A stretch of 63,841 bases of DNA from Minisyncoccota bacterium (GCA_020057185.1 JAGVGK010000005.1:1-63841); one strand, 5' to 3'. Positions 1 to 60,481 are shown, counted from the stretch's first letter. Program-made: numbers and translations. Notes: generated by a model not told the origin, from the letters alone.

Positions 1-125
1 CCCGACTTTACGTCGGGGCTACAAGCTATCACAACCACACCAAACAAGCGCGACGAGAATGAGCGCGAGTGAAGATGGAAAACGCGTACCACAACCTTCC
101 CTAACATTCGGAGGGCGTCTTTCAT
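1..125 (-). CDS. Possible 5' part of a hypothetical protein running off the window edge (MKDALRMLGKVVVRVFHLHS...)
   Basis: ATG at 125..123, open to position 1; below the ORF-track cutoff. Contains a TAGCTTG-type unit and a CCCGAC/GTCGGG hairpin at 1..30. Confidence 0.2.
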   Translation of the reverse strand, partial: MKDALRMLGKVVVRVFHLHSRSFSSRLFGVVVIACSPDVKS

Positions 126-2573: not shown

Positions 2574-2581
2574 AAGGTAAA

Positions 2582-2590
2582 ATCTTAGCA
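2582..2590 (-). promoter_or_regulatory. Extended -10 element TGCTAAGAT, 8 nt upstream of the secA ATG (near-leaderless)
   Basis: Reverse complement of atcttagca. Lies directly after the T-run of the upstream terminator; no Shine-Dalgarno sequence present. Confidence 0.45.
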
Positions 2591-2591
2591 C

Positions 2592-3676: not shown

Positions 3677-4051
3677 TCATCCTAATGATAAAACCTCGAC
3701 AAATTTCTTAATTTTCTTGGCTAAAGTTTTATCATTGGTCACCAATATCGCTTGTTTTGAAATCGCAGTCGCAGCGATAATCGAATCCGCCAGAGAAAGA
3801 TCCGTATTTCTTTTTAATTTAATGGCGACTGAAGCAACATTACCAAGCAAACTTACCTCGCCAAATAAGTCAATAAATTTTTCTGCCTCATACAAATCAT
3901 TTCCCTTAAGTTCTGGAAAGCACAAAGTTTCTATTTTACTGATAGTTGAGATCGCTAAATATTCTGATTCGAGATGATTTTTGATCCACTCCTTGATGGA
4001 AGCATCCCCGCTCAAGTGGCCGATTAAGATATTCGAATCAAGAATATACAT
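3677..4051 (-). CDS. vapC: PIN-domain toxin, VapC-like
   Basis: 124 aa. Acidic PIN residues in the usual contexts: ILDSN, SKIETL, LADSIIAA, VTND. Confidence 0.8.
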   Translation of the reverse strand: MYILDSNILIGHLSGDASIKEWIKNHLESEYLAISTISKIETLCFPELKGNDLYEAEKFIDLFGEVSLLGNVASVAIKLKRNTDLSLADSIIAATAISKQAILVTNDKTLAKKIKKFVEVLSLG

Positions 4052-4057
4052 AAAATC

Positions 4058-4264
4058 TTACTTGTACTGTCTTTCCATTCTTTTCTCCCACTCTTTTCTG
4101 GTCTTTCTTTGATAAGCAACGGGCGATATTTTGGTTTTTCCATTCCCCTTTATTAGCCCGTAACTTCTCTCTAGCACACTAAGTTCAGGCTTTGCCCAAC
4201 CCAGTAATTGCTCAAGGTTTTTGTCATAATCTATCTCCGTCTTTAATTGTGTGTTTTTTAACAT
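4058..4264 (-). CDS. Putative cognate antitoxin (VapB position)
   Basis: 68-aa ORF ending 6 nt before vapC. The call rests on position and size only. Confidence 0.5.
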   Translation of the reverse strand: MLKNTQLKTEIDYDKNLEQLLGWAKPELSVLERSYGLIKGNGKTKISPVAYQRKTRKEWEKRMERQYK

Positions 4265-4276
4265 ATCGTCATCATA

Positions 4277-5833
4277 TCACGCTTTTAAAAGCTGTCGAAT
4301 TTCTTCGTAGTCCTCGGCGTAGGCGGAGATGATGTTGATTAAACGCTCTTTCGCCACGCCGAGTTGCTCTTTTTCGGCGTCTTTAACTTCGAGTAATTGT
4401 TCGAAACTGAAATGCGCTGTCGAATCCGTGGCCTCTTCCAATTTAACTTCTTGAGTTTGGGCCATAATTAATTCTTCCGCCACACCCAACGGATAACTGG
4501 CAAAAAAAGAATTAAGCGCCCGAATAATATCAAACCCGGGCGCAAGTTTGACTGCCACCATATCGGCAATCACCAGAGTTCGGAAAAAAATCACCACTTC
4601 GCGCGGTAAATAAATTTGGTAATCACGTGTTTTGAGTAAAATTTTTGAAAAAACCAGCGAAGAAGTTAAGTGCTGATAATTAGGTAAAGTTTTCTCTTCA
4701 TACCACGGCGTGAGAATCCCTTCCAAATCAAGTTGTAAATTATCGAGCATAATCTCTTCCAATTTATCAACCACTTTGGCATACCGTTTATAAGTGTCTG
4801 GTTCTTTCAGTTTAAATAAATCAACTTCATCGGCCATCGCCGTCTTCGCAAAATGGAGAAAGTGCTTACTCGAAAAAGCCAGATCGCGCCGAGCGATGCC
4901 GTAAATAATCCGCAAGAGATCCAACCGCGTCTTCCCCACCTGACCGATAATTCCGAAATCGAAATAACCCAACCGATTATTTGAAGCGAAAAAGAGATTC
5001 GCCGGATGCGGATCAGCATGGAAAAAACCATCAATGAAATACTGGCGCATAATGTCAAAAACGAAATAATACGCTAGCTCTTCGGTGTGGATAGAATGGT
5101 TGGTGAGAAGTTCGTCGCGGTATTTCGGATTTTTTTCCAATTCTTTAAGCACCGTTTCCACTGAAAAGACTTCCGCCATATCTTCACTGACTAACACTCG
5201 CTCAGTGGACCACTCGGCGTAAGCTCGCGGGATAATCGTCCGCGGATGACTTTCGCTATGACGCGCGAGAATTTGCGAATTGGTTAACTCCTCGCGGAAA
5301 TCGAGTTCGCGCCGACTCCAAGCGATAAATTCTTTGACCACATCTTGAATTTGGAAAGTATTAAATAAACGGAAAAAACTAAGGAGTCGGCCGAGAACGC
5401 GCGCCAACAAAAAATCAGTCTCGAAAACTTGACGGATTGCCGGCCGTTGAATTTTGACCACAACGGGAGTGCCGTCGGACAACCGCGCGCGGTAAACTTG
5501 AGAGATCGACGCCGAGGCAATTGGTTTGGATTCGAATTTTTGAAAAACGGCTTCCGGCGGTTGGCCGATTTCGTCAATAAAAACTTGGCGCATCGCCGAG
5601 TACGGCGACACCCTGATTCGCGACAAGAGATTAAGCAACTCATTCGCGTACCGAGGTGGAATGAGATCGTGACGAAGCGAAAGAATTTGTCCGAGTTTGA
5701 CGAACGCCCCACCCGCTTGCTCGAAGAAAAGTCGCAGGCGGACTTCCGGCGTTACTTCCCGTTTTAATAACAACCGGATACTAATCCGACCAATGTCCCA
5801 AAATCTGGTTAAAAAATCTAGCCCGCTCATCAT
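4277..5833 (-). CDS. ubiB: ABC1/UbiB-family atypical protein kinase
   Basis: Motifs PIASASISQVYRA, VVVKIQRP, HADPHPANLF, FDFGIIG. Confidence 0.9.
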   Translation of the reverse strand: MMSGLDFLTRFWDIGRISIRLLLKREVTPEVRLRLFFEQAGGAFVKLGQILSLRHDLIPPRYANELLNLLSRIRVSPYSAMRQVFIDEIGQPPEAVFQKFESKPIASASISQVYRARLSDGTPVVVKIQRPAIRQVFETDFLLARVLGRLLSFFRLFNTFQIQDVVKEFIAWSRRELDFREELTNSQILARHSESHPRTIIPRAYAEWSTERVLVSEDMAEVFSVETVLKELEKNPKYRDELLTNHSIHTEELAYYFVFDIMRQYFIDGFFHADPHPANLFFASNNRLGYFDFGIIGQVGKTRLDLLRIIYGIARRDLAFSSKHFLHFAKTAMADEVDLFKLKEPDTYKRYAKVVDKLEEIMLDNLQLDLEGILTPWYEEKTLPNYQHLTSSLVFSKILLKTRDYQIYLPREVVIFFRTLVIADMVAVKLAPGFDIIRALNSFFASYPLGVAEELIMAQTQEVKLEEATDSTAHFSFEQLLEVKDAEKEQLGVAKERLINIISAYAEDYEEIRQLLKA

Positions 5834-39821: not shown

Positions 39822-40820
39822 TTATAAAAAATATTTATACAAACTATTAGCTAAATTGACTAAACTATGTTTTTGCGCGAAACCTAAAAGATTTAGACGG
39901 AGATCGTTTTTTTGTACATCATCCATATTCAATAAATTTTTAATTTCCCCCTTCACCGCGATTTCTCTAGCGGGTTGACTTTCAGACCAAATAACTAGAG
40001 CCCCACAAGCCATCGCTTCCAATATCGTTTTATCCATACTGCCAGTCGGAGTTAGATTAACATAAATTTCGTGGGAGCGATAGATATCGAGTGTCTCTGA
40101 ATGCCGTACAGCGGGGCATAAGGACAAGCGACCAGAGCGCGTCAGTGGTTCAGCTAATCGATGTAATTCTCGCTCATAGAGAATATCTGTCTCGAAAATT
40201 GGTGAACCAACGATTGTAGCGGTGAAATCAATTTTCTGTTTCTGCAATTCCAATAACGCGTTTATCAGAATATCTAATCGTTTGATTGGTGAGATGCGAC
40301 CGAGCGCTAAAATCGATCGCGGAATCTTTTTCACGTTTGGATCTGGTCGAAAAAAATCCGTATCAATCCCCACCGGCATTATTTTCGTTTTCTTAAATCG
40401 CGCGGTGAAAGATTGCGGCGAAGTACAAAATACTTTATTAGAAACAAGAATGGCAATTCTCGTGAGAAATCCTCCGAATGCATGATTCCGCCATAAGTAT
40501 ATTTTCTTACCCCACAATTTCCAAAATTTCCACCCAAGCAGAACATACTCCTGATTCATGTGAACAAACACGGCGTCATAGTTTTTTCGTTCTTGCCAGA
40601 TGTATTTATAGAAACGCCACACATACTTGACCTTTGATTGGCCAGATTCCTTGCCTAAAGATAAAACCCCAACATTAGGTGGTAAATTATACTTCCCCTT
40701 CTCCAAACAAATTACGATTATCTTCTCGCAATGTTTAGCGAATTCTTCAATCCAGCGACAGAAAAAACCGAGGATTGGATCATTTCGGTCAACTTTTTGA
40801 GTGATAATTAAAAGTTTCAT
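39822..40820 (-). CDS. Glycosyltransferase family 4-like
   Basis: TGSMDKTILEAMACGALVI. Its ATG overlaps the abiEii stop (ATGA). Confidence 0.75.
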   Translation of the reverse strand: MKLLIITQKVDRNDPILGFFCRWIEEFAKHCEKIIVICLEKGKYNLPPNVGVLSLGKESGQSKVKYVWRFYKYIWQERKNYDAVFVHMNQEYVLLGWKFWKLWGKKIYLWRNHAFGGFLTRIAILVSNKVFCTSPQSFTARFKKTKIMPVGIDTDFFRPDPNVKKIPRSILALGRISPIKRLDILINALLELQKQKIDFTATIVGSPIFETDILYERELHRLAEPLTRSGRLSLCPAVRHSETLDIYRSHEIYVNLTPTGSMDKTILEAMACGALVIWSESQPAREIAVKGEIKNLLNMDDVQKNDLRLNLLGFAQKHSLVNLANSLYKYFL

Positions 40821-41560
40821 TGCTCCAATCTCCTTATCTCGTCTTTTATTAATCCAAGGACTTCTCTTTTTAATATTTTGCGTATGGCAACAAATTTATC
40901 ATAAGGCAAAAGTGAATTGAGATCCTCGGAAATGATTTTTTCCGTTACTTTTTCATCTACAAAATCGATAAGGTTAGAAAGAAATTCTTTCGTTCCCTTT
41001 CCGGTTTTTTGTTTTATAACACTGGCATCATACTCAAAACCGTTTAGAAAAAAATAGTGGACATCGTAGATATCCCGGCCGGCAATAGTTCCAGTTTTTT
41101 TAAACCTATCCATCACGGCAATAAGTTTGTGAGCAAACATCGTTTCTTTGGTTTGGCAAATCAAAATACGATCTATTTCCAAAAATCTCACCGGCGCGTA
41201 TTTGCTCGTAGAAAAGAGCGGGAAAGAAGCGTCTATTTTCAAAATTTTCCTTTCTGAACCGATAGCATCATATTTTAAAAAATATTGAATCCCGTTTTTA
41301 CTTTTATCTTTTATGAAAAGATTTAACTTCACAAACAGACGCTCAAGCGCTTGACATGTTTTTCCAATGTCTTTTTCGGCGCCAGCATAATCAAAATCTA
41401 AATCAACTGAAAACCGATTCAACCAACCAAGCATTGAGGCGCAGGTTCCACCTTTAAAAAATAAAACACTGGTGAGATACTGATTATCAGCAATCGCTTC
41501 AAGAATTCGATAAAGCCACGCCTTATGAATAGCCTCTTTTCTGTTTGGTACGATCATCAT
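40817..41560 (-). CDS. abiEii: Nucleotidyltransferase AbiEii/AbiGii-family toxin (DUF1814)
   Basis: FFKGGTCASML..NRFSVDLDFDY. Confidence 0.85.
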   Translation of the reverse strand: MMIVPNRKEAIHKAWLYRILEAIADNQYLTSVLFFKGGTCASMLGWLNRFSVDLDFDYAGAEKDIGKTCQALERLFVKLNLFIKDKSKNGIQYFLKYDAIGSERKILKIDASFPLFSTSKYAPVRFLEIDRILICQTKETMFAHKLIAVMDRFKKTGTIAGRDIYDVHYFFLNGFEYDASVIKQKTGKGTKEFLSNLIDFVDEKVTEKIISEDLNSLLPYDKFVAIRKILKREVLGLIKDEIRRLEQ

Positions 41561-41566
41561 TTTTTT

Positions 41567-42160
41567 TTAGGATTTGATACCCTTTATAATATATCCCACC
41601 GCATCGGCAATTTCCCTGACTTTGCCCCACTGAATTAAAGTTGAATCTCCAGCATCAAAATATTTTCGCGGATTAAAATAAAGCATATCGGCGACCGCGC
41701 GGGGGATAGAAGCGATACGAACACCATCTTTTATCTCTATCCCCGCATCGTTAAAAAGAAACTCCTCACGCATCTTTCTTGATCGATATTGTATACCGGC
41801 GATAGAAAAATGCCTGGAAAATTGACTGACGAGGGTAACCGCCAGCGGCGACTGATTCAAAATACCTTTTTGATAAAGCACCGACTCACAAGAGACATAG
41901 GCTGGTGAATGGATAGCTTTGACACCCAAAAGAAAAGGATTTATTTCACTCGCTTTCTTAACTGCATACAACCCCTTGTAGACGCGGTGAATAAGCCCGT
42001 CTGCCACATATCTTGAAAGCGTCTTATACAAAGTATTTTCATTGGGAATCTCCCACAAATTCGCCACATCGCTGGCATGAAAAACTATCTCACCGAGAGT
42101 AGCAATAGAAGCCAGGCGCTCACCCCCCGATCCCCTAATGTCTTTATATTTTATACTCAT
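41567..42160 (-). CDS. abiEi: AbiEi-family antitoxin / transcriptional regulator
   Basis: N-terminal wHTH-like LYKTLSRYVADGLIHRVYKGLYAV. Ends 6 nt upstream of abiEii. Confidence 0.75.
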   Translation of the reverse strand: MSIKYKDIRGSGGERLASIATLGEIVFHASDVANLWEIPNENTLYKTLSRYVADGLIHRVYKGLYAVKKASEINPFLLGVKAIHSPAYVSCESVLYQKGILNQSPLAVTLVSQFSRHFSIAGIQYRSRKMREEFLFNDAGIEIKDGVRIASIPRAVADMLYFNPRKYFDAGDSTLIQWGKVREIADAVGYIIKGIKS

Positions 42161-42206: not shown

Positions 42207-43202
42207 TCATTGTAATAATTCAATAACACCCTTGGCAACATTGGCAAAATCTTGCCCGATTATTCGCACCCCAACTTCTCTCGCCACACCGACATCGGTC
42301 GAAACAATTTTACAACCTGCCGCTTGGGTTTCGACTAAAGTCATGCCATAACCCTCATACAGTGAAGTGACAAGAAACAGATCGCAAGTTTTATAATAAG
42401 AATACAGTGTTTCTTGATTGACCCAATTTTCAAAAATAATACTAGCTTCTAGCTTATAGCTTATAGCTTTTAGCTTCAAAATTTTTTCTTCTGGTCCGGA
42501 GCCAACAATTATCAACCCTATTCTCCTATTCGCGCGAATTAGAGAAGACACTGCTTCGATTGCCAAATCAATATTTTTTTCTTTAGTTAAACGCGAAGCC
42601 ATTAAAATTATTTTATCAAATTGCTGATATTTTTTATGCAAGTCTACCGTGATTGGTGTATTTTTAATTTTCTCTATGTCTACAAAAATCGGCCGTATTT
42701 CAATTTCAGCTTTTATCCGCCAGCTGGCGGATTTTAGAAAATCAGCAATTCGTTGGCTAACAACACGAATTTTGTCGGCTTTAGGTAATAAGAATTTGGC
42801 GAGCAGAAACCGAATTTTATTCTTGAACGATTCCTGCCAAAAATACGGACTGCCAATATCGGTATGGATTTGAAGTTCAAGTTGGGCTAATTCCCGACGC
42901 GAGATTAACCAACCTGTTAATCCTGATTCGAATGGATCTTGGCAAGTAACCAAATCAATTTTTAGTTTAAGTTTCTTAACTAATTTTACCGCATCAAAAA
43001 TGTAAAATAATTTTAATCTGGAATTAGTGGGATAAATCCAAAGTTTAGGTGAAATTTGAGCAGAGACAAGACCGAGAGATTTTTGGGCAAATACTATTAT
43101 ATGTGTCTCGTCAACCAAGTTTGCATAGCCAATTATCCGCTCGCGTACCGCGCTCGCGGGTTGAAACAAATTTCGATCCGAGCCGATACTTAAAATTTTC
43201 AT
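42207..43202 (-). CDS. Glycosyltransferase family 4 (carries a heptamer-array insert)
   Basis: SLYEGYGMTLVETQAAGCKIVSTDVG. Confidence 0.85.
   Translation of the reverse strand: MKILSIGSDRNLFQPASAVRERIIGYANLVDETHIIVFAQKSLGLVSAQISPKLWIYPTNSRLKLFYIFDAVKLVKKLKLKIDLVTCQDPFESGLTGWLISRRELAQLELQIHTDIGSPYFWQESFKNKIRFLLAKFLLPKADKIRVVSQRIADFLKSASWRIKAEIEIRPIFVDIEKIKNTPITVDLHKKYQQFDKIILMASRLTKEKNIDLAIEAVSSLIRANRRIGLIIVGSGPEEKILKLKAISYKLEASIIFENWVNQETLYSYYKTCDLFLVTSLYEGYGMTLVETQAAGCKIVSTDVGVAREVGVRIIGQDFANVAKGVIELLQ
42443..42477. repeat. Five tandem heptamers: tagcttc tagctta tagctta tagcttt tagcttc, in-frame in the GT4 gene
   Basis: Read directly. Encodes LKLKAISYKLEA on the minus strand. Confidence 0.95.
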
Positions 43203-44176
43203 ATCTTAATGACTAAATCTAAAAATTCCCGCGCTAGCTCTGACCAAGAATGTTCAAAATTAAAATTAGTGATTTTTTTAATTTGTGTCTCATAATTATT
43301 TTTATCACTTAACCACAACAATTTTCCTTCAACATCGGCCAGATTAAGCGGGTTAATGTATATGCCAATTTCACCCAAACGATCTTGTATACCATTTTCT
43401 TCGGTCAAAATAAAAGGCTTATTACAACGAATCGCGTCCAAAACAATGTTCGGACTGATTTCGGACACCGACGGGACAATGAGACCATAACAACTTCTGA
43501 TTTTTTCTGTTAATTTCTCCGGCGACCATTGACCAATTTCAAAAACAAAATTTAAAGGTTTGAGAATATCAAAATTTTTCAATTTTAAATTGCGTCCAGC
43601 TGATATAAAAACTTTTTGTTCTGGCTCGTTGGAAACTTCTTTTCTACCATAATAATTTTCGATAATTTTTGTTTTGGATAAATCTAAATTATATGGTTTC
43701 GCCCAAATTTGCCTCTGCCAATCAGTGCTAAAAACTATTAAACTAGACTGTTTCAAAATCCAACGAGTTAGTTTGAAAATAAGACGCTCTTTGAAATTGA
43801 AATTCGGAATTTCAGTTTGATAGAAATTGCGTAATAAAACAAGTTTACCGGTTCGTTCAACATAGTTTTCCCACAAGAAATCCCCGCCGGTGCGAATAAT
43901 CGTTTTTTTGCCCAATAGTCGACCAGCCATAACAGATGGCAAACCGACACTGAAAGTGTCGAGAGTTAAACACCAATCAGCCCAATGCAAAGTGGGGAAG
44001 ATTTTAAAAAAATAAAAGATATGTCGTAAACCACTCGGCCAGTGTTTAACATCCGAAAATTTAATCACTCGAACCTCATGGCCAAGTTTCTGAAATTCTC
44101 GTTCCAAATTAAATGCGTACTGCGCCGGACCACCAATGTCCGGTGGATAAATACCAGTGGCGATTAGGATTTTCAT
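43199..44176 (-). CDS. GT-B fold glycosyltransferase
   Basis: MKILIATGIYPPDIGGPAQY N-terminus and a degenerate E-x7-E region. Confidence 0.7.
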   Translation of the reverse strand: MKILIATGIYPPDIGGPAQYAFNLEREFQKLGHEVRVIKFSDVKHWPSGLRHIFYFFKIFPTLHWADWCLTLDTFSVGLPSVMAGRLLGKKTIIRTGGDFLWENYVERTGKLVLLRNFYQTEIPNFNFKERLIFKLTRWILKQSSLIVFSTDWQRQIWAKPYNLDLSKTKIIENYYGRKEVSNEPEQKVFISAGRNLKLKNFDILKPLNFVFEIGQWSPEKLTEKIRSCYGLIVPSVSEISPNIVLDAIRCNKPFILTEENGIQDRLGEIGIYINPLNLADVEGKLLWLSDKNNYETQIKKITNFNFEHSWSELAREFLDLVIKI

Positions 44177-45264
44177 AGTGATAGAAGACTTCTCATTTGT
44201 TTAGCAATAATTTCCCAATTGTACTTATTCAGAACCATTTGACGAGCTTCGTTAATAACTTGCTTCACCTTGTCGTGATTGGTCGGATCCAAAATATATT
44301 GCACTTTCTCGGCGACACTTTTGGGATTGTCCGCTTCACAGAACCAGCCCGTGACACCGTCGGTTAGAAAGTCCGGGATCCCCCCTACTGGCGTACCAAC
44401 CACCGGCACGCCCGCCGCCATCGCTTCGAGAAACGAATTACCGAGTCCTTCAGACCGTGAGGGTCGCACAAACACATCGGCTTGAGCGAGATAATTTGAT
44501 ACTTCATTTGGTGGGACATGACCGAGAAATTCAATCCGAGCTTGTAGCTTGTAGCTTGCCTGCCCGACGGCAAGGCGGGTAGCTTGTAGCTTTAAATTTT
44601 TCTCTTCAATCCCACCACCGAGAATCTGAAGTCTTATATTATCCGGCAAAAAACGCATCGCTTCAATTAAAATATCTACGCCATTTTTCTTCACCAATCG
44701 CCCCGTGTGAATAATTACCAGGTTAGCTTTTAGCTTGTAGCTTTTAGCTTGTAGCTTAAATTTATCCAAATCTACCCCATTAGGAATTACCGTAATCGGA
44801 CAGCGTGCCCCCATCGTTCGCGCCCACGCGCCGAGATAATTAGAAATAACTTGGATGTGATCGGCCACTTTAAAAACCCTAAAAATTCTCGGTAAAAGTA
44901 ATCTCAAACGATACGCCCAGCTATTTAGATCATCCCCTTCTTGCAAAGTTAAAAGAAACGGCACAGTTAGAAAACGACGCTTGAAAAGCGCGCCGGCCAT
45001 CCCCGCCTGATTGGCCATAATCGCCCAAATTGCGTCGTAGGGCTTAATTTTATGTCTTCTTGAGGCTTCTCGGTAAGCCCAGAACGGATAAGAATATTTA
45101 GACCAAAAATTTCTAATGTCGGCGTGGATAATTTCAAACTGAAATTCCGGCAATCCTGCCTTGTCGGCAGACAGGCGATCGGTAATCTCTTTCACCGCCA
45201 CTTCGGCTCCGCCGACAAAGGGGAAATAAGCAAGAGAAAAAATTAAGATTCGAGGCGTCGACAT
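44173..45264 (-). CDS. Glycosyltransferase family 4 (carries three repeat-element inserts)
   Basis: SRSEGLGNSFLEAMAAGVPVVGTPVGG. Confidence 0.85.
   Translation of the reverse strand: MSTPRILIFSLAYFPFVGGAEVAVKEITDRLSADKAGLPEFQFEIIHADIRNFWSKYSYPFWAYREASRRHKIKPYDAIWAIMANQAGMAGALFKRRFLTVPFLLTLQEGDDLNSWAYRLRLLLPRIFRVFKVADHIQVISNYLGAWARTMGARCPITVIPNGVDLDKFKLQAKSYKLKANLVIIHTGRLVKKNGVDILIEAMRFLPDNIRLQILGGGIEEKNLKLQATRLAVGQASYKLQARIEFLGHVPPNEVSNYLAQADVFVRPSRSEGLGNSFLEAMAAGVPVVGTPVGGIPDFLTDGVTGWFCEADNPKSVAEKVQYILDPTNHDKVKQVINEARQMVLNKYNWEIIAKQMRSLLSL
44538..44593. repeat. Composite element: 3 heptamer units + a 21-nt palindromic insert + 2 heptamer units
   Basis: gagcttg tagcttg tagcttg [cctgcccgacggcaaggcggg] tagcttg tagcttt. 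Encodes LKLQATRLAVGQASYKLQA. Confidence 0.9.
44724..44758. repeat. Five tandem heptamers: tagcttt tagcttg tagcttt tagcttg tagctta
   Basis: Read directly. Encodes KLQAKSYKLKA. Confidence 0.95.
45155..45176. repeat. 22-nt imperfect palindrome cctgccttgtcggcagacaggc, identical to 53504..53525
   Basis: Exact 22/22 match read by eye. Encodes LSADKAG in the same frame at both sites. Confidence 0.95.
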
Positions 45265-52270: not shown

Positions 52271-52308
52271 CCCCGCCTACATCTGCAAAGTTGTGGCGGG
52301 GATTTTTA
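52271..52308 (+). terminator. Intrinsic terminator between convergent genes
   Basis: CCCCGCC-17 nt-GGCGGGG followed by ATTTTTATT. Confidence 0.7.
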
Positions 52309-53622
52309 TTCCAATTTTTTCACCAGCTTTACAAACTGGGCACCACGGTCGTATTCATTTTTAAATCCGCCAGGTGGCGGACCAAAAGACGCAAACCCCG
52401 GACTTAAAAGTAAAATATCGCCAGTCTTAGCTATTGTTACCCCTAATTCAACCGCCTCTTTTAAATCCTCAACTTCTCTATACTTTAAATTTTTCATTTT
52501 GAGTTTTAAGTTCTTCGTCCCCGTTCCAGGCAATAAAATAATTTCTTTACAATATTTAGGTAAAGTTTTAATTAAAATATCTAACGGCAAATTTTTATCC
52601 GCGCCACCCATGATTAGAATAATATCTTTCTTTTCCCCGCCCAATGCTTCCAACGCCACCTTCAAAGCATCGGGAGTGGTGGAAGTGGTGTCGTTATAAA
52701 TCTTAATCCCCCGCCAAGTGCGGATGGGTTCCAAACGCCCAGCGACTCCAGTGAAATTCTCCACGGTCTGCTTAATCAGTTTTTCCGGAATCTCTAAAAT
52801 TCTAGCGACCGCGACCGCACAAGCCGCATTGATCCGGTTGTGCTCACCCAAGATTTTTAGCTTCCAACTTTTAGGCAACTCTTCAACCTTCTCTCCCCGC
52901 ACTAGATGATCTTCTGGCTTCTGATACTTAAAAATATTTTCTTTATCAGATAAATACTTTTTCATATCACCGTGGTAATAATTAAAGTGATCAGCCATAA
53001 AGTTAGTAAACACCGCAATATCTGGGCTGATTTTTAAATCGCCGAAACCTTGCAACTGCCACGAATCAAGTTCTAAGACCACCCAATCGCCCAATTTAAC
53101 TTTCGGCAACAACGCGAGTGTCGAAACACCCAAAATATTTCCGCCCAGCCACACCTTCCCAACCTGTTTTAAAATTTCATAAATCAAGCTCGTCACTGTC
53201 GTTTTGCCTCTTGTGCCGGTCACACCAATTATTTTCGCGCCCAATGATTGAGCAAATTTTACGAACAACGCCGTGCTCATCATCACCGGAATTTTATTTT
53301 TCTTAGCTTCGGCGATATAAGGCGAATCAAGTGGCACACCCGCAGCTTTGATAATCAAATCGCGGTGCTGAAAATCTTGAAGTCGGTGTTTACCCAGAAC
53401 ATAAGTAATAGCTTTTAGGTTATAGCTTCTAGCTTTTAGCTTCTTTAGCGAAGGAGACAAATCTTTGGCTGATTTCAAATCAGTCACAATAAGTTCAGCA
53501 CCACCTGCCTTGTCGGCAGACAGGCACTCCGCTAAAAACTTGGTATCCCCCACCCCGCGACCGAGAAGCCCGAGCCCCATCAGTGTAATTTTCTTCCCTC
53601 GAAAATAATCTCGATAATCCAT
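52306..53622 (-). CDS. murD: UDP-N-acetylmuramoylalanine--D-glutamate ligase (carries two repeat-element inserts)
   Basis: ITLMGLGLLGRG and GVTGTRGKTTVT; Mur ligase layout. Confidence 0.9.
   Translation of the reverse strand: MDYRDYFRGKKITLMGLGLLGRGVGDTKFLAECLSADKAGGAELIVTDLKSAKDLSPSLKKLKARSYNLKAITYVLGKHRLQDFQHRDLIIKAAGVPLDSPYIAEAKKNKIPVMMSTALFVKFAQSLGAKIIGVTGTRGKTTVTSLIYEILKQVGKVWLGGNILGVSTLALLPKVKLGDWVVLELDSWQLQGFGDLKISPDIAVFTNFMADHFNYYHGDMKKYLSDKENIFKYQKPEDHLVRGEKVEELPKSWKLKILGEHNRINAACAVAVARILEIPEKLIKQTVENFTGVAGRLEPIRTWRGIKIYNDTTSTTPDALKVALEALGGEKKDIILIMGGADKNLPLDILIKTLPKYCKEIILLPGTGTKNLKLKMKNLKYREVEDLKEAVELGVTIAKTGDILLLSPGFASFGPPPGGFKNEYDRGAQFVKLVKKLE
53409..53443. repeat. Five tandem heptamers: tagcttt taggtta tagcttc tagcttt tagcttc, in-frame in murD
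   Basis: Read directly. Encodes KLKARSYNLKA. Confidence 0.95.
53504..53525. repeat. 22-nt palindrome cctgccttgtcggcagacaggc in murD, identical to 45155..45176
   Basis: Encodes LSADKAG between AEC and GAELIVTD of the MurD Rossmann region. Confidence 0.95.
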
Positions 53623-54048: not shown

Positions 54049-55788
54049 TTAATCCACTATTTTTTCAATATCCACAATTTCTTTGCGAACATAATTCTCC
54101 ACATCGTTGAGGCTTTGTTTCAAACTCTCGGCAATCGCCGATTCCTCTTTCGTCAGCACGCGATTGGCCTTCGCCTTCTCGAGCAACGCCAATTGGTCGC
54201 GGGATTTCTCGCGCAAGAAATCGAAACTCTTATGCAACGCCTCAGTCGCTTCACGCGACTCTCGGCGCACCGCTTGTTTGATTCGTCGCAAGCGATAATA
54301 ACTCCACAAAATAATAAAGATCAGGAAAATAATCAAGACGAGAATTGGGACAATTAGCGAGAGCCAACGGAGAAGATTATTTGCCCATTGCCACAACGCC
54401 GGCAGATAAAGTGTGAGCACCACGGCTTCGGACGGCGCACTCTCGGCACCGCGATTATCTTTAACCATCGCCGTGGCGGTATAAACTCCCGCCGGCCACT
54501 TCTCATCCGATGAAATCACAAACTTCCCAGCTTGATCAGCCCGAGACTCGCGCGTCGTCTCACTGCCATCGGGATGTTTGAAACTAACTGTCACTAATCC
54601 GCCAGCTAACGCTTCACCGCGCAAAGTAATTATTTCACCCGTGGCAATCTCGCGCGGATAGTCAAGAATTTTGGGCGCCGGCAGTGGCGCGATTGAGAAA
54701 TTAACCGAACCCGCTAATTCATTTCCCGCCCGATCATAAACCTTAACGAGCAGGGTGTGCTCGCCCGACTTCATCACCGGTGTGATAAACCGATGATCGG
54801 CGTTATCTGGCCAGATAATTGCCGGCGCGCCATCCACCGAGATTTCATAGCGGTCAAGACCAGAGCCTTGATCCGTCGCGGTGATGGTGAAAGCGACCAC
54901 CGGATCCGTCGCATCCAATCGCTCGATTGGAATAATCTGGAGATCCGTCGGCGGAACCGTATCAATATTGAAACCAAAATGAGTAATATCGCCCCAACCG
55001 CCGGCATTTCGCAAACGGAGATGGAAATACCAAGCTCCATCCTTCACCGCTTTTTTATAACTATAAGTTGAAAAACGCCCGTCGCTCGCCGTGCCCGGGT
55101 TGGTTGACGGCGAGTGATCGGCGAGAATATTAACGCCGGTAATATCCGAAGCTAATTCCCATTCGAAAATCGGATCCGAATTGTTGTACCACAACGCAGG
55201 ATCGGGATGCGTGGTGGAAGTCACTTGTGGCGCGCCGGGCGCGCCGATCACCGTCGTCGCCGTCGTCGCTTCTTTGGCTGGCGATTCTAGTTTAACCGGC
55301 ACAATTCCGTAGTTGGCGTTAGCGAGTCCACTCAAGATATTAGTCCCTTGTCCGTCATTAGCGAGAACCGATCCTTCGCTGAAAGTGAGCTTCGCCGAAC
55401 CAATAATTTTGGGTTGGAAAGTAATGCTCAATACTTTTTTCCCTGTACCAGAAAAACCTGGGTTGGGAACCACCCCTTCAAATTTAATTTGCCCCGTCGC
55501 GTTGGAATAACTTGGTTCACTCACCCAATAAGTGATGACTGAATTATTTTTACTCAAACTAACCACTTCCAAACGATCGGTTGGAAAAGTAACCAGCCCA
55601 GACAAAGCGTTCGCTGTTTTGTCCGAACTCGTAACCACCACCGTCGTCGTGAAAGGCACGCCCACTGTATAAGTGCCGGTCGCGGGCGTGAGCGAGAGTG
55701 TCGCGCCGAGAACCGGTGTCGCTAGACCTAAGAAGAGGACGACCGCGACGATCGAGATAATTTTCGAATAATAAATCTTGCGCCCCAT
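54049..55788 (-). CDS. Cohesin-domain cell-surface protein with Ig-like repeats, C-terminal TM helix and coiled-coil tail
   Basis: Signal peptide. Cohesin-like block LSLTPATGTYTVGVPF...LTFSEGSVLANDGQGTNIL. TM helix LSLIVPILVLIIFLIFIILW. Confidence 0.7.
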   Translation of the reverse strand: MGRKIYYSKIISIVAVVLFLGLATPVLGATLSLTPATGTYTVGVPFTTTVVVTSSDKTANALSGLVTFPTDRLEVVSLSKNNSVITYWVSEPSYSNATGQIKFEGVVPNPGFSGTGKKVLSITFQPKIIGSAKLTFSEGSVLANDGQGTNILSGLANANYGIVPVKLESPAKEATTATTVIGAPGAPQVTSTTHPDPALWYNNSDPIFEWELASDITGVNILADHSPSTNPGTASDGRFSTYSYKKAVKDGAWYFHLRLRNAGGWGDITHFGFNIDTVPPTDLQIIPIERLDATDPVVAFTITATDQGSGLDRYEISVDGAPAIIWPDNADHRFITPVMKSGEHTLLVKVYDRAGNELAGSVNFSIAPLPAPKILDYPREIATGEIITLRGEALAGGLVTVSFKHPDGSETTRESRADQAGKFVISSDEKWPAGVYTATAMVKDNRGAESAPSEAVVLTLYLPALWQWANNLLRWLSLIVPILVLIIFLIFIILWSYYRLRRIKQAVRRESREATEALHKSFDFLREKSRDQLALLEKAKANRVLTKEESAIAESLKQSLNDVENYVRKEIVDIEKIVD

Positions 55789-56480
55789 AAAATAAATACT
55801 CCTACTATTATAGCGCCAATTAGATAATAAAGGGGATCAAGGGGTGGGGAAAAAGCCCTAACCACTCGTTCGTTGCCAACCAGATCAACCGCCTTCACTT
55901 CAATCCGTTGGTCGAGCTTCTGATTGATGATTAAATATGGGCTTTCGTTTTTTTGCCAAATGCAACTGGCAAACTTGGAATCACCTGCTTTTTTTTCGCA
56001 CACTTCATAATGGCTAATTCCTGATTGTTTATCTTGCGCACTGAAAACTAAAAACTTCTGACCATTGAAAAGAGTTGGATCACTGCTAATCAGCGGTGTG
56101 AATTCTTCCGGCGGAATTCGATCAGTGATTATTTGATCGGCGATCGGCGTGACCGTCACATAAAATTTAGCCGTAACCATTGTCCCTTGACCATCATTGG
56201 CTAAAACTTTCAATTTCGAGAAATCAAATTTTGGCACCGGCACGGATTCGGGTAAAATTAAACTAATCAACTCGATTGGTTGACCTTGATAACCGCCGGG
56301 AATAATCCCCGCGAGCGAGAGATGGCCGGCTTCCAGACTCGGTGCTTCCATCCAAAATTTAACCACCGAATTGGCACTGGCGATTGAGATCACTTCGACC
56401 CCTTGAGGAATTATAATTTCCCCACCAATAGCGTTGATTGATTGAGGTCCTGGATCAATGGAAATTATAATGTTTTGCAT
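55728..56480 (-). CDS. Cohesin-like protein lacking a signal peptide, with a C-terminal TM helix (possibly a truncated paralogue)
   Basis: IGGEIIIPQGVEV...KLKVLANDGQGTMV aligns with the cohesin block of 54049..55788. An in-frame stop lies 4 codons upstream of the ATG. Confidence 0.55.
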   Translation of the reverse strand: MQNIIISIDPGPQSINAIGGEIIIPQGVEVISIASANSVVKFWMEAPSLEAGHLSLAGIIPGGYQGQPIELISLILPESVPVPKFDFSKLKVLANDGQGTMVTAKFYVTVTPIADQIITDRIPPEEFTPLISSDPTLFNGQKFLVFSAQDKQSGISHYEVCEKKAGDSKFASCIWQKNESPYLIINQKLDQRIEVKAVDLVGNERVVRAFSPPLDPLYYLIGAIIVGVFILWGARFIIRKLSRSSRSSSS

Positions 56481-56504
56481 TTTACGTTTTTAGTTTTAAG
56501 TTTT

Positions 56505-57839
56505 CTACCCCGTCCAATAATAGGCCATAATACTGAAGTCGACCAAATCAACCTTGCCGTCGCCACTCAAAATCGCTTTTTCTCGCGGAATAAAGTCGGC
56601 AGTCAATGGTCGGTGATACCAATAAGCGGCAATCGAAAAATCAATCAGATTAACGCGACAATCACTGTTGAGATCACCGCGCAACGGGCAACCTTGGTTT
56701 GGTTCAGCCAAAACTGTCGTGGTGCCAACGCGAAAATTGACCACCGCGCCAAATGGACTAATCTCGTTCAGCACCGTGGATTTCGATTTCGTGGTGTGAT
56801 CGCCCTTCTCAATCAGCGTGGTGTCGAAATTATAAAGATAGAGACCGCCGACACCGGCTAAGGTTCTGACAAAAATTTCTTGATTGGAATTGACCGCAAT
56901 CGTCACCGTGCTACTGCCGACCGTCTGACCGAAAATCGCAATGTTATCGCCGTGCGCCACTTCCCGTTTATCCACATCGATCGTCGGTGACAAGAAGATC
57001 CCACTGATATTCGTCATCGCGCCCTTGGTTAGGTAAACCGGAAAAGTGAAAAGCGTCGACCGACGACCTTGATTATCTTCACCATAAACCGCGAAGAGAT
57101 ATTCTCCCGCGGATAAACCAGTCAGCGCGACGGCAAATTTCGCATCCGGACCGGCAATCGTGGTAATCGCAATTTGTCCATCTTTGAGAATTGTCACTTT
57201 GCTTAAAGGATAACCGTAGCCCGAGAGATTAACGCCAGTCGCCGTCACGGTTTCTCCTCCTCCACCACCACCCCCTCCTCCGCCACCACCACCCGAAGAT
57301 ACTGGCGTTGCCGACACTTCGCTCGAAGTGGCAATGGTATTGCTCAACGCATCTTCCGGCCGAATCACAAAATAATACGGCGTACCATTAGTCAAACTAC
57401 TGCGCGTCGTAGAAGTGACATTGCCTAAACTGGTATAACTATATGGCCCGCCGGCGACCGTGGCTTGACCAACATTGTATCCGCCCACCGTCCAACCGAG
57501 CGACGCCGTCACCGCCGACCATGAGAGCGCCACCGATCCGTCGCCGGCGGTCGCCGAGACCACCGGCGTCGCGACGACTGGAAAAAAGAGCCAGGCGCTT
57601 TGCAGACCGAAACCGATCGCCGTGCTGGTACCTAAACCCATCTCGCCGAGCGAGCCGAAAAGTTGGAAATCAGTGGAAGTCGAAAACTGCGCCGGCGCCA
57701 ACACCGGATCAAGGACGCGAAAACTTGATGAAGTGTATTCATCAGCTTGCGCCAAAGAAACAATGCCAAGCACTGCCACTAAATAAAACAGAGCCAGAAA
57801 CTTTTTATTGGAGTTTGTTATCGGTTTTATACTTCTCAA
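56505..57839 (-). CDS. Secreted FN3/Ig-like protein with a poly-Gly linker and C-terminal dockerin
   Basis: Signal peptide, a G13 run, and two dockerin repeats: GDLNSDCRVNLIDFSIAAYW and SGDGKVDLVDFSIMAYYW. Confidence 0.75.
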   Translation of the reverse strand: MRSIKPITNSNKKFLALFYLVAVLGIVSLAQADEYTSSSFRVLDPVLAPAQFSTSTDFQLFGSLGEMGLGTSTAIGFGLQSAWLFFPVVATPVVSATAGDGSVALSWSAVTASLGWTVGGYNVGQATVAGGPYSYTSLGNVTSTTRSSLTNGTPYYFVIRPEDALSNTIATSSEVSATPVSSGGGGGGGGGGGGGETVTATGVNLSGYGYPLSKVTILKDGQIAITTIAGPDAKFAVALTGLSAGEYLFAVYGEDNQGRRSTLFTFPVYLTKGAMTNISGIFLSPTIDVDKREVAHGDNIAIFGQTVGSSTVTIAVNSNQEIFVRTLAGVGGLYLYNFDTTLIEKGDHTTKSKSTVLNEISPFGAVVNFRVGTTTVLAEPNQGCPLRGDLNSDCRVNLIDFSIAAYWYHRPLTADFIPREKAILSGDGKVDLVDFSIMAYYWTG

Positions 57840-59365: not shown

Positions 59366-60448
59366 TTACTGTAACCTCGTCCCCCCGCGGAGGCGAACTC
59401 CACCGCGGAGACGCACGGCTCGGGCATTAGCCGTGACCGAGGGGATATAAGTGATGACAATCACCCCTTGCTTGCCCACTCCTTCAAGAAGTTTTGTCGC
59501 CCCCCCAGCGCCACCACCACCGCCGCCATAACTACCGCCAGCGCCGCCGCCTTTGCCGGCGCTACCACCCCCGCCACCGCCACCAGAACCGGCGAGGGCG
59601 CCAAATTCAATTGCCGTCCATTCAATCGTCCCAGCGCCGCCGGCGGCGCCGGCAAGGGAAGTGCCACCCCCACCACCGCCACCCAAAGTTCCAGCTGACT
59701 CCGCCGCGCCACCACCTTGCCCATTGAAATTATTCCCGCCCGCGCCACCGCTAAGACCATGAAATCCAGATGTCCCACCACCGCCACCACCGCCACCACC
59801 ACCTTCGACACCGCCGGGTTCAGTCGTCGCATTTCCCCCATTGCCACCGGTACCATAAAGACCGCCCGCGCCACCACCACCGCCACTACCATTGGTATCG
59901 CTAACAGTATCTATATTTCCACCCGTCCCGCCATTAAAACAACCACTGCAACTGGCCGGTATTCCAGCCGAGACCAACCCGCCGGCGCCATTAGCCGGAT
60001 CGGATATTAAACCACCACTGCCTCCTTGAGCACAAACCGACATTGTGGAAGCGCACACAAAAGAAGAACCTGAAGTTCGGTTAAACCAGGTATCACCGCC
60101 TTTTTTACCATTACTTCCGCTAGCAACAACCACTGTGGTAGAACCAACTTGATAGGTCACTGATCCCCCAGCTGTCAACCCTGTGAGATTGAAGATAACC
60201 GCATATGCCCCGCCGCCGCCACCGCCACCACCATTAATGTCGCCACCGGTGGTACCGCTATCACCGCCACCGCCACCGGCGCCAATCGCTTCGATGGTGT
60301 TAACCGCCGACCAATCGCTGACCACCGTCCAAGTGCCGGGATCGCCGGAGGTGAGAAAAATTCGCTTAAACGCATTGGCGGGATGGGGGAAGGCGAGCAG
60401 AGCAAATAAAACGAGACAGATACTTTTCCACAGTTTGGGGGTTGACAT
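59366..60448 (-). CDS. Secreted glycine-rich protein
   Basis: Signal peptide (MSTPKLWKSICLVLFALLAFPHPANA), many GGGGGG runs, and C-terminal VRLRGGVRLRGGTRLQ. Confidence 0.7.
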   Translation of the reverse strand: MSTPKLWKSICLVLFALLAFPHPANAFKRIFLTSGDPGTWTVVSDWSAVNTIEAIGAGGGGGDSGTTGGDINGGGGGGGGAYAVIFNLTGLTAGGSVTYQVGSTTVVVASGSNGKKGGDTWFNRTSGSSFVCASTMSVCAQGGSGGLISDPANGAGGLVSAGIPASCSGCFNGGTGGNIDTVSDTNGSGGGGGAGGLYGTGGNGGNATTEPGGVEGGGGGGGGGGTSGFHGLSGGAGGNNFNGQGGGAAESAGTLGGGGGGGTSLAGAAGGAGTIEWTAIEFGALAGSGGGGGGGSAGKGGGAGGSYGGGGGGAGGATKLLEGVGKQGVIVITYIPSVTANARAVRLRGGVRLRGGTRLQ

Positions 60449-60481
60449 GGTTTGGTGGTTTGCTATCATATAAATAATTCA

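Follow-up and report, generated by a model that had tools for sequence, protein, structure and literature searches.

Heptanucleotide simple sequence repeats (SSRs) with an orientation constraint and heptad peptides, intragenic palindromes of the repetitive extragenic palindromic (REP) and Rickettsia palindromic element (RPE) kinds, and the tiny mobile modules of cyanobacteria are already known. RPE-1 spans about 100–150 nt; REPs measure 20–40 nt, carry a GTAG or CGTC tag, are mostly extragenic, often occur as inverted pairs and are linked to REP-associated tyrosine transposases (RAYTs). Intragenic GTAG/CGTC REPs are on record for Opitutus terrae and R. conorii, where replication and repair genes hold many of them (Di Nocera 2013, PMC3733652). 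Among heptamers, the TAACTGA repeats of Beggiatoaceae are barred in one orientation from open reading frames (ORFs) by stops in all frames and give in the other the seven-residue peptide LSVISYQ (MacGregor 2015, PMC4679880); according to earlier work as summarised in PMC4679880, heptamers are the most abundant class of long SSR, which is put down to polymerase slippage. Here we analyse five-unit arrays of the heptamer TAGCTTN that lie within two family 4 glycosyltransferase (GT4) genes and murD in what we call the window, the entire 63,841-bp contig of a Minisyncoccota bacterium (GCA_020057185.1, JAGVGK010000005.1). The comparisons presented below show that the arrays are DNA-level repeats that lie in frame, hold a constant five units, have long occupied their sites, are usually not insertions and belong to a class with many different units. 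With modest confidence, we lean towards regarding them as local cases of five-heptamer patches of about 33–35 nt spread across the Candidate Phyla Radiation (CPR), patches that would have arisen and been homogenised in situ, with a separate 21-nt hairpin as the mobile part.

The initial annotation had placed these arrays in frame in the three genes, and re-reading of the sequence bears it out. The gene GT4a (42207–43202; Glycos_transf_1, 3.6e-29) holds an array at 42443–42477 that reads TAGCTTC TAGCTTA TAGCTTA TAGCTTT TAGCTTC on the plus strand and encodes KLKAISYKLEA. GT4c (44173–45264; Glycos_transf_1, 7e-37) holds two: an intact one at site 1 (44724–44758; five TAGCTTT/G units in an interdomain linker, peptide KLQAKSYKLKA) and one at site 2, with three units to the left of a hairpin (44538–44558; GAGCTTG TAGCTTG TAGCTTG on the plus strand) and two to its right (44580–44593; TAGCTTG TAGCTTT). 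The sequence at 44538–44593, earlier described as a split copy, is indeed there, but it is one array of five units (3+2), broken by a separate hairpin of 21 nt. In murD (52306–53622; Mur_ligase_M/C and MurD-like_N domains) the array occupies 53409–53443 (TAGCTTT TAGGTTA TAGCTTC TAGCTTT TAGCTTC; peptide KLKARSYNLKA). The host ORFs of all four arrays are on the minus strand, and the gene-sense unit is AAGCTAn. Tandem Repeats Finder also calls the arrays at 42443–42477, 44538–44593, 44724–44758 and 53409–53443. The two-unit pattern TAGCTTNTAGCTT, with at most one mismatch, has 15 matches in the window, all on the plus strand, against 0.47 expected from dinucleotide shuffles of the window (maximum 3).

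Much of the apparent uniformity follows from arithmetic. The three peptides are as first read, and their likeness is automatic, because 7 nt × 3 = 21 nt = 7 codons and any frame of AAGCTAn is a rotation of K-L-x-A-x-S-Y. The shared orientation, likewise noted before, is forced, because TAGCTTN read as the sense strand puts TAG in frame by the fourth unit. The variable base of the unit is limited by codon phase (nAA other than TAA; TAn = TAY), and it follows from the sequence that only the stop-free orientation would survive and that unit number would change only in threes. The codons themselves are invariant: leucine is CTA in 8/8 cases, alanine GCT in 8/8 and serine AGC in 4/4, although across 25 window ORFs CTA supplies 6.9% of leucine codons (the rarest), GCT 26.7% of alanine codons and AGC 11.1% of serine codons. 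The invariant codons, including the rarest leucine codon, therefore mark the repeat as a DNA-level and not a peptide-level feature. They speak against the view that selection for a K-L-x-A-x-S-Y heptad amphipathic helix, whether ancestral or convergent, produced the DNA repeat as a side effect, as does the finding that unrelated units with unrelated peptides share the same 33–35-nt geometry. The arrays do lie where GT4 enzymes have an amphipathic helix, and similar peptides, such as KLKLKTKSYNLEA in the related contig L244, persist in orthologues whose DNA repeat is degenerate, but some arrays lie outside ORFs and structure models place arrays partly in low-confidence loops. We consider such peptide selection very improbable.

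Comparison with orthologues shows that the arrays are usually not insertions. Codon counts for GT4a and for GT4c site 2 are equal with or without the array across five syntenic genomes and 45 orthologues, the GT4a count being the same in L121, L243, L244 and L245. At the murD site the window is 12 nt longer than L121 and L122, not 35–36 nt longer, and L120 shares a degenerate array. The contig index has no entry for the exact MurD protein, and its orthologues took its place in the comparison. Equal codon counts, with a gain of only 12 nt in murD, therefore argue that arrays do not as a rule enter as added sequence; the slots are filled elsewhere by non-array or other-repeat sequence of equal codon count. 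Set against solved structures, L130 gives the same picture: in GatA and at one LigA site the array stands in for a native linker, and two LigA array sites add little beyond the hairpin. These results speak against the earlier proposal that (TAGCTTN)x5 is an RPE-like mobile mini-element inserting in frame into ORFs, which would have made the array segment an insertion in the alignment of host proteins. The proposal can draw on four copies of the same length and orientation in three genes, on TAGCTTN arrays in many genes of related genomes, and on one LigA site where array and hairpin together are a net insertion relative to E. coli. Two of the four window sites, however, show no length difference and a third only +12 nt; there are no target duplications and no common flanks beyond paralogous coding sequence; orthologous sites hold diverged units in register; and some 25 unrelated units share the geometry. 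Nor do the arrays fold into alternative hairpins, as had been supposed: the single strands reach −3.4 to −3.7 kcal/mol with z = +0.5 to +0.6, no better than shuffles. With neither insertion nor stable stem-loop nor shared element sequence, the arrays stand apart from RPEs, and we regard the mini-element explanation as improbable.

Age and change in concert are best seen at GT4c site 1. Where the window and L121 have AAGCTAn, L243 and L244 have TTCAGCT TTTAGGT TCTAGCT TTCAGGA, in which the AGCT core keeps register with the AAGCTAn arrays, and L245 has GAAGTGA GAGGTGA GAAGTTA. Different heptamers in one register therefore point to an old array that has changed in concert and predates genus divergence. 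Elsewhere, L193 and L241 differ in all three left units (ATTTCTG versus ATTTCGG) and in none of the right units, and in the 35-nt GT4a array slot of L243 the central 21 nt are taken up exactly by a palindrome of 16 nt plus 5 nt of flank. The reading of the L121 GT4a array and the FQLLGSSFQ peptides as inverted arrays was considered and rejected: the AGCT core is in register and only the flanking bases have changed.

The same constancy bears on phase variation, in which heptamer slippage would shift the frame of a glycosyltransferase. Two hosts are surface-glycan glycosyltransferases, heptamers are slippage-prone in principle, and arrays in other phyla range from 4 to 31 units. Yet the unit number is five at all sites and is kept in orthologues of 75–78% protein identity, and arrays sit mid-gene in the essential murD and also in ligA, gatA and pheS. 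Seven near-identical assemblies of a related population (3.7–16.4 kb) contain no indel; their arrays being degenerate, the test is a weak one. The initial annotation had already set the frameshift switch aside on the ground of constant copy number and the murD host; the constant five units and essential hosts uphold that judgement, and we find a switch scarcely credible.

The 21-nt hairpin is a separate mobile module, enriched in arrays at a fixed position. At GT4c site 2 it is CCTGCCCGACGGCAAGGCGGG (44559–44579, plus strand; peptide TRLAVGQ; DNA fold −4.8 kcal/mol), placed at a unit boundary, and it is 100% complementary to a copy in secA (2389–2409, the reverse complement of CCTGCCCGACGGCAAGGCGGG; gene 207–2591, minus strand; peptide DLPDGKA) that appears as a seven-residue gap in the alignment to the E. 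coli SecA structures 6s0k and 3bxz. A variant, CCTGTCTGCCGACAAGGCAGG, lies on the minus strand of murD (53504–53524; LSADKAG), where comparison with L120 and L122 shows it as an insertion of exactly 21 nt, and an identical copy (45155–45175, minus strand; LSADKAG) lies in the N-terminal part of GT4c at a site that is filled in L121 and empty in most orthologues. Changes between the two variants come in pairs that preserve the stems, and all window copies are in frame. In L121, a syntenic Vogelbacteria contig, the state of the GT4c arrays is reciprocal to that of the window: site 1, five intact units in the window, reads AAGCTAC AAGCTA, then CCCGCCTTGACGTCGGGCAGG, then C AAGCTAC AAGCTAC AAGCTAA in L121, and site 2, with the hairpin in the window, is an intact array there. 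An occupied site exceeds its empty counterpart by exactly 21 nt, located at a unit boundary, and nothing is duplicated. The hairpin therefore moves as a 21-nt unit without target duplication, and a 7-bp duplication at array sites, which we had also considered, is ruled out by the same difference. The RPE-like behaviour first ascribed to the arrays thus belongs to the hairpin, as the reciprocal GT4c state, the murD insertion and the SecA insertion show; it is a palindrome inserted in frame, present or absent at orthologous sites, with its added residues kept.

A scan of metagenomes for the hairpin pattern yielded at least 120 contigs (786 kb, mostly 30–50% GC); all counts from this and the other scans reported here refer to the matches listed. 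The near-palindromic consensus is CCTGCCTGCCGGCAAGGCAGG, a form taken by 82/125 copies, and a general form for counting copies in CPR genomes is CCTGYCYGMCGNCAAGGCRGG. The module has no stop in any of six frames, and the flanks of 125 copies show no conserved base and no GTAG or CGTC tag. When the metagenome contigs and the window are taken together, 85/129 copies fall in ORFs of at least 150 aa, and 53 of those 85 are in the single frame reading LPAGKAG (chi-square p = 8e-27), a bias that suggests filtering at the protein level. Six hairpin copies outside arrays have 7-mers on both sides that match at 6/7 positions. Several copies outside full arrays, in L157, L178, L183, L192 and L200, are flanked by 7-mers matching at 6/7 or more (for example AAAAATG|AAAAATC and CTTTGCG|CGTTGCG), where chance would give about 0.2–0.5; these pairs are either two-unit targets or occasional 7-bp duplications. 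A scan of viral contigs gave 14 matches, mostly on contigs of 51–68% GC, that look like chance or unrelated coding sequence; in two viral contigs only (L258:632–673 and L263:2003–2044) the hairpin occurs as a head-to-head dimer, which recalls REP doublets.

Structural models are consistent with the expectation of surface loops voiced in the initial annotation: the predicted positions are linkers, helix ends and loops with low predicted local distance difference test (pLDDT) scores. In the GT4c model (mean pLDDT 90.7), array 1 is placed at residues 169–179 in the interdomain linker (block pLDDT 68), array 2 with its hairpin at residues 224–241 at a helix end and the next loop (block 71), and the other hairpin at residues 31–37 in the loop after helix 19–32. 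The MurD model (mean pLDDT 87.4) puts the hairpin at residues 34–40, in the loop after helix 22–35, and the array at residues 61–71, at a helix end and loop (block 65). The GT4a array lies at the helix after the G-x-G-PEEK motif. Arrays and hairpins alike are thus modelled in surface loops and linkers of locally low pLDDT.

Arrays of this geometry extend well beyond the window. A scan for (TAGCTTN)x4 in one genome per species returned at least 119 loci in many phyla. In named CPR genomes, the 17 loci have 4–6 units, often with mixed N, in long ORFs, and other heptamer arrays of 25–41 nt occur near them; outside the CPR, TAGCTTN arrays are homogeneous, mostly non-coding and 4–31 units long. The difference in the frequency of arrays of at least seven units between CPR and other phyla gives Fisher p = 6e-6 and 2.5e-4. 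Outside the CPR the arrays are found in Pseudomonas, Vibrio, Shewanella, Alcanivorax, Acidobacteriota, Bacteroidota and Cyanobacteria, and one-base variants of the heptamer (TAGCTCG, CAGCTTG, TGGCTTT) often form further arrays after them. In the Uhrbacteria contig L115, two five-unit CAGGTTA arrays (5617–5649 and 5702–5738) stand inverted about 50 nt apart.

A period census of the hairpin contigs, with hairpins deleted, found for period 7 five arrays of three units, 10 of four, 21 of five and none of six or more, and at most five arrays in 786 kb for each other period from 5 to 11. The fixed number of five units first noted for the dispersed window arrays is therefore more general, since the period-7 census peaks there. 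In the wider census, which adds the window and L120–L122, 37/45 arrays lie in ORFs of at least 150 aa, and about 25 unrelated heptamer units share the five-unit, 33–35-nt geometry; there is therefore no single element sequence. L130 alone carries arrays in pheS and gatA and, in ligA, four arrays built from three different units; a hairpin is present in three of the four. Joining the two flanks of each hairpin copy, with the hairpin removed, reveals a period of 7 in 9/124 cases; about 2,480 control positions yield 0, and no period except 7 is enriched. The units of hairpin-bearing arrays are unrelated to one another (TTTTGAT, TTTTAGG, ATCAGGT, AAGATGG, AGTTCAC, ATTTCTG, TCAACTA), and some 90% of hairpin copies lie outside arrays. 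With the hairpin read forward, the array reaches 18–23 nt to its left and 9–15 nt to its right in 10/10 clear cases (binomial p = 0.002), the 3|2 geometry already seen at GT4c site 2. Apart from the CCTGCC-type hairpin and a 33-nt variant, no other element was found to split arrays, in a sample that was itself chosen by the hairpin.

The explanation to which we lean can be set out stepwise. Arrays would arise in place, in length-tolerant surface linkers and helix ends, from native sequence that is already unit-like (K-L rich, AAGCTn), and would then last across genera. Their uniformity would be kept by out-of-register (slipped-strand) misalignment with correction or by template switching, in which a neighbouring unit is overwritten with a copy of another unit and the length stays unchanged; selection would leave the stop-free, length-tolerated versions in surface linkers. 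Several points weigh against this account. The length-neutral homogenisation is inferred from comparisons, no event having been caught, and the taxonomic identity of the at least 120 metagenome contigs is not established. From simple slippage one would expect short arrays to abound, with a long tail and polymorphism in unit number, but the observed peak coincides with the maximum, five, and the few arrays in non-coding sequence also have about five units. That the hairpin keeps its 20|13 position irrespective of the unit sequence suggests a mechanistic link between array and hairpin that passive targeting does not predict, and one L130 LigA site (array plus hairpin) is a net insertion of about 21 residues relative to E. 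coli. In-place origin and homogenisation thus explain neither the cap at five units nor the 3|2 rule.

Because of the five-unit peak and cap and the 3|2 geometry, dedicated patch-writing or measuring machinery stays in play. Such machinery, perhaps the mover of the hairpin itself (a polymerase that switches templates, or a nuclease, HUH or other, measuring 7-nt steps), would write each patch in one event, about 33–35 nt at a site becoming five copies of a local heptamer; intact arrays would then be pre-insertion targets made by the enzyme, or footprints after hairpin loss. In its favour are array sizes that peak at their maximum of five, with none longer, for any unit and in coding and non-coding sequence; a 3|2 geometry that, relative to hairpin orientation, is invariant in 10/10 arrays; the hairpin length of 21 nt, equal to three units; the palindrome and its 5 flanking nt exactly in the middle of the L243 slot; and the several different arrays within the single L130 ligA gene. 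On the other side, no candidate enzyme occurs among the 38 scanned window ORFs, most hairpin copies lie outside arrays, and long-term concerted divergence at single sites needs continuing homogenisation anyway. We also know of no precedent for a patch-writing activity, which counts against this machinery, and on balance we judge it possible but unlikely. Stated more broadly, an undescribed CPR activity of DNA rewriting, one that makes five-heptamer patches, usually with little or no change in length, places the hairpin at 3|2 and remodels surface loops of essential proteins, can be entertained only tentatively. Origin and homogenisation in place remain our preferred account of the arrays.

Several further features accompany the arrays and hairpins. 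The opposite partial unit reported at 20–30 exists, but it belongs at 19–28, where CTACAAGCTA amounts to 1.4 heptamer units in the opposite orientation and adjoins a strong hairpin at 1–18. This contig-end hairpin (CCCGAC-TTTAC-GTCGGG, then CTACAAGCTA; 1–30, minus strand) lies downstream of secA, is cut by the window end, folds as DNA at −7.4 kcal/mol (z = −5.15 versus shuffles) and is the only one with GTAG adjoining its stem. No Rfam family was found in the window. Two degenerate period-7 patches of 33 nt are also present: one in the murD C-terminal linker (52482–52514, minus strand; sense AGAACTT AAAACTC AAAATGA AAAATTT AAAGT), at whose site the L120 orthologue has AGAAGCTACAAGCTACAAGCTAAAAGCT instead, and one at the junction of ORFs 55728–56480 and 56505–57839 (56473–56505; TTTTGCA TTTTACG TTTTTAG TTTTAAG TTTTC).

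Other palindromes and inserts occur in the same genes. The perfect, in-frame palindrome TCCGCCA(GC/GG)TGGCGGA is found at 42715–42732 in GT4a (KSASWRIK), where it replaces native sequence without changing its length and where the L245 version is imperfect, and at 52366–52381 in murD (GPPPGG); it is also the palindrome in the middle 21 nt of the L243 GT4a array slot. In murD, PPPGG is a four-residue gain patchily spread over MurD orthologues; the model puts it in a loop at residues 414–419, with pLDDT below 50 at 415–417. Three MurD inserts recur at identical positions in orthologues that are not closest relatives: GLPLKTQNPRV(A/T)L (P0002, P0007, P0020), YCQCQGLPLT (P0005, P0006, P0011) and PRLRSGQN (P0004, P0005, P0013, P0018, P0032). 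A different, GC-rich palindrome of 48 nt (L121:10095–10145) stands exactly where the window murD has the 21-nt hairpin. Together, the recurrent MurD inserts and this palindrome suggest that in-frame modules come in several families and that insertion has hot spots. In the L130 gatA gene (3719–5188), a 16-residue insertion relative to solved GatA structures lies within GKLQITNHSPSQISGGNLGGQ and starts with the array-like KLQITNH; it may be an array with another kind of insert.

As for the host, MurD homologues place it, on sequence grounds, in the Paceibacteria/Parcubacteria group of the Patescibacteria (CPR), the nearest named MurD relative being a Candidatus Vogelbacteria metagenome-assembled genome at 75% identity. 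The window also encodes secA, murC, a long glycan-biosynthesis cluster and PIN, NYN and AAA_14/DUF4143 proteins. Transposase genes, including RAYT/Y1 (HUH), are absent from the 38 window ORFs scanned, about 20 further ORFs lying outside the scan. Between the glycosyltransferase genes lie two genes (40817–41560, 247 aa; 41567–42160, 197 aa) whose syntenic counterparts in L121 and L243 are annotated as PF08843 AbiEii (abortive-infection/toxin–antitoxin toxin), and the pair holds its position in at least three genomes. Farther on, GC-rich CCACCG/CCGCCA runs of period 3/6/9 (57250–57300 and 59500–60290) fall in the minus-strand ORFs 56505–57839 and 59366–60469, whose products are Gly-rich and of low complexity, with Big_6/Big_13 domain proteins as neighbours; GC content is about 0.49 around these runs, versus 0.35–0.40 in the glycan cluster.

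Should these patterns hold genome-wide, CPR proteins such as MurD, SecA, LigA, GatA and PheS would be systematically decorated by two tiny DNA-level modules that add or overwrite 7–12 residues in surface linkers. Such modules would explain part of the length variation of CPR proteins and of the "CPR-specific insertions", would be a source of misalignment in phylogenomics and could serve as strain markers. The cap, the independence from the unit and the 3|2 position do not follow from ordinary slippage and point to a molecular ruler in replication, repair or transposition, one that can be tested by comparative genomics in unculturable organisms. If a rewriting activity does exist, the murD and GT4 arrays would be its footprints, and loops would be continually remodelled in organisms with minimal genomes.

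With regard to the literature, a literal search of 8 million full texts gave no match to the hairpin sequence or peptide, topic searches returned nothing relevant on fixed five-unit heptamer patches in CPR genes or on this hairpin, and the five-unit cap and the 3|2 rule appear to be undescribed. PARCEL repeats (PMC2996958), considered as a candidate, are a 25-residue motif and unrelated. Among known systems, RPEs and intragenic REPs resemble the 21-nt hairpin in being palindromic, in frame and residue-adding in known proteins; the hairpin differs from REPs in lacking a conserved tag and in its predominance within ORFs, and no RAYT was seen among the 38 window ORFs scanned. Quasipalindrome and quasi-repeat template-switch mutagenesis, established in E. 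coli genetics, yields clustered changes that perfect an imperfect repeat while its length stays unchanged, a pattern that resembles both the arrays and the TCCGCCAGCTGGCGGA palindrome (window versus L245). It is, however, a mechanism and not an element family, and it predicts neither a five-unit cap nor the same palindrome at unrelated loci. The SDR modules of heterocystous cyanobacteria, reportedly described by Elhai and colleagues in 2008 as small mobile modules of 21–27 nt, are of the same size class as the hairpin and share its precise insertion at a defined point of another short repeat. SDR5 enters HIP1 after the third nucleotide and before the fourth (Elhai 2015, PMC4390886). Taking SDRs as dispersed modules that insert precisely and have neither terminal inverted repeats nor target duplications, the hairpin fits; it differs in host phylum and sequence, and its target is a heptamer array at 3|2, not HIP1.

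For the arrays themselves, variable-number contingency loci differ in that their copy number varies, whereas CPR arrays have 3–6 units, and five at the window sites and in L121. Closest in form are the heptanucleotide SSRs (long SSRs with 5–11-nt units, the cyanobacterial STRR sequences and TAACTGA), which, like the window arrays, are tandem head-to-tail 7-nt units. Most of those repeats lie between genes, their copy number varies and they are often long; the arrays described here are capped at five units, mostly intragenic, constant in number between genera and built from many different units within one genome.

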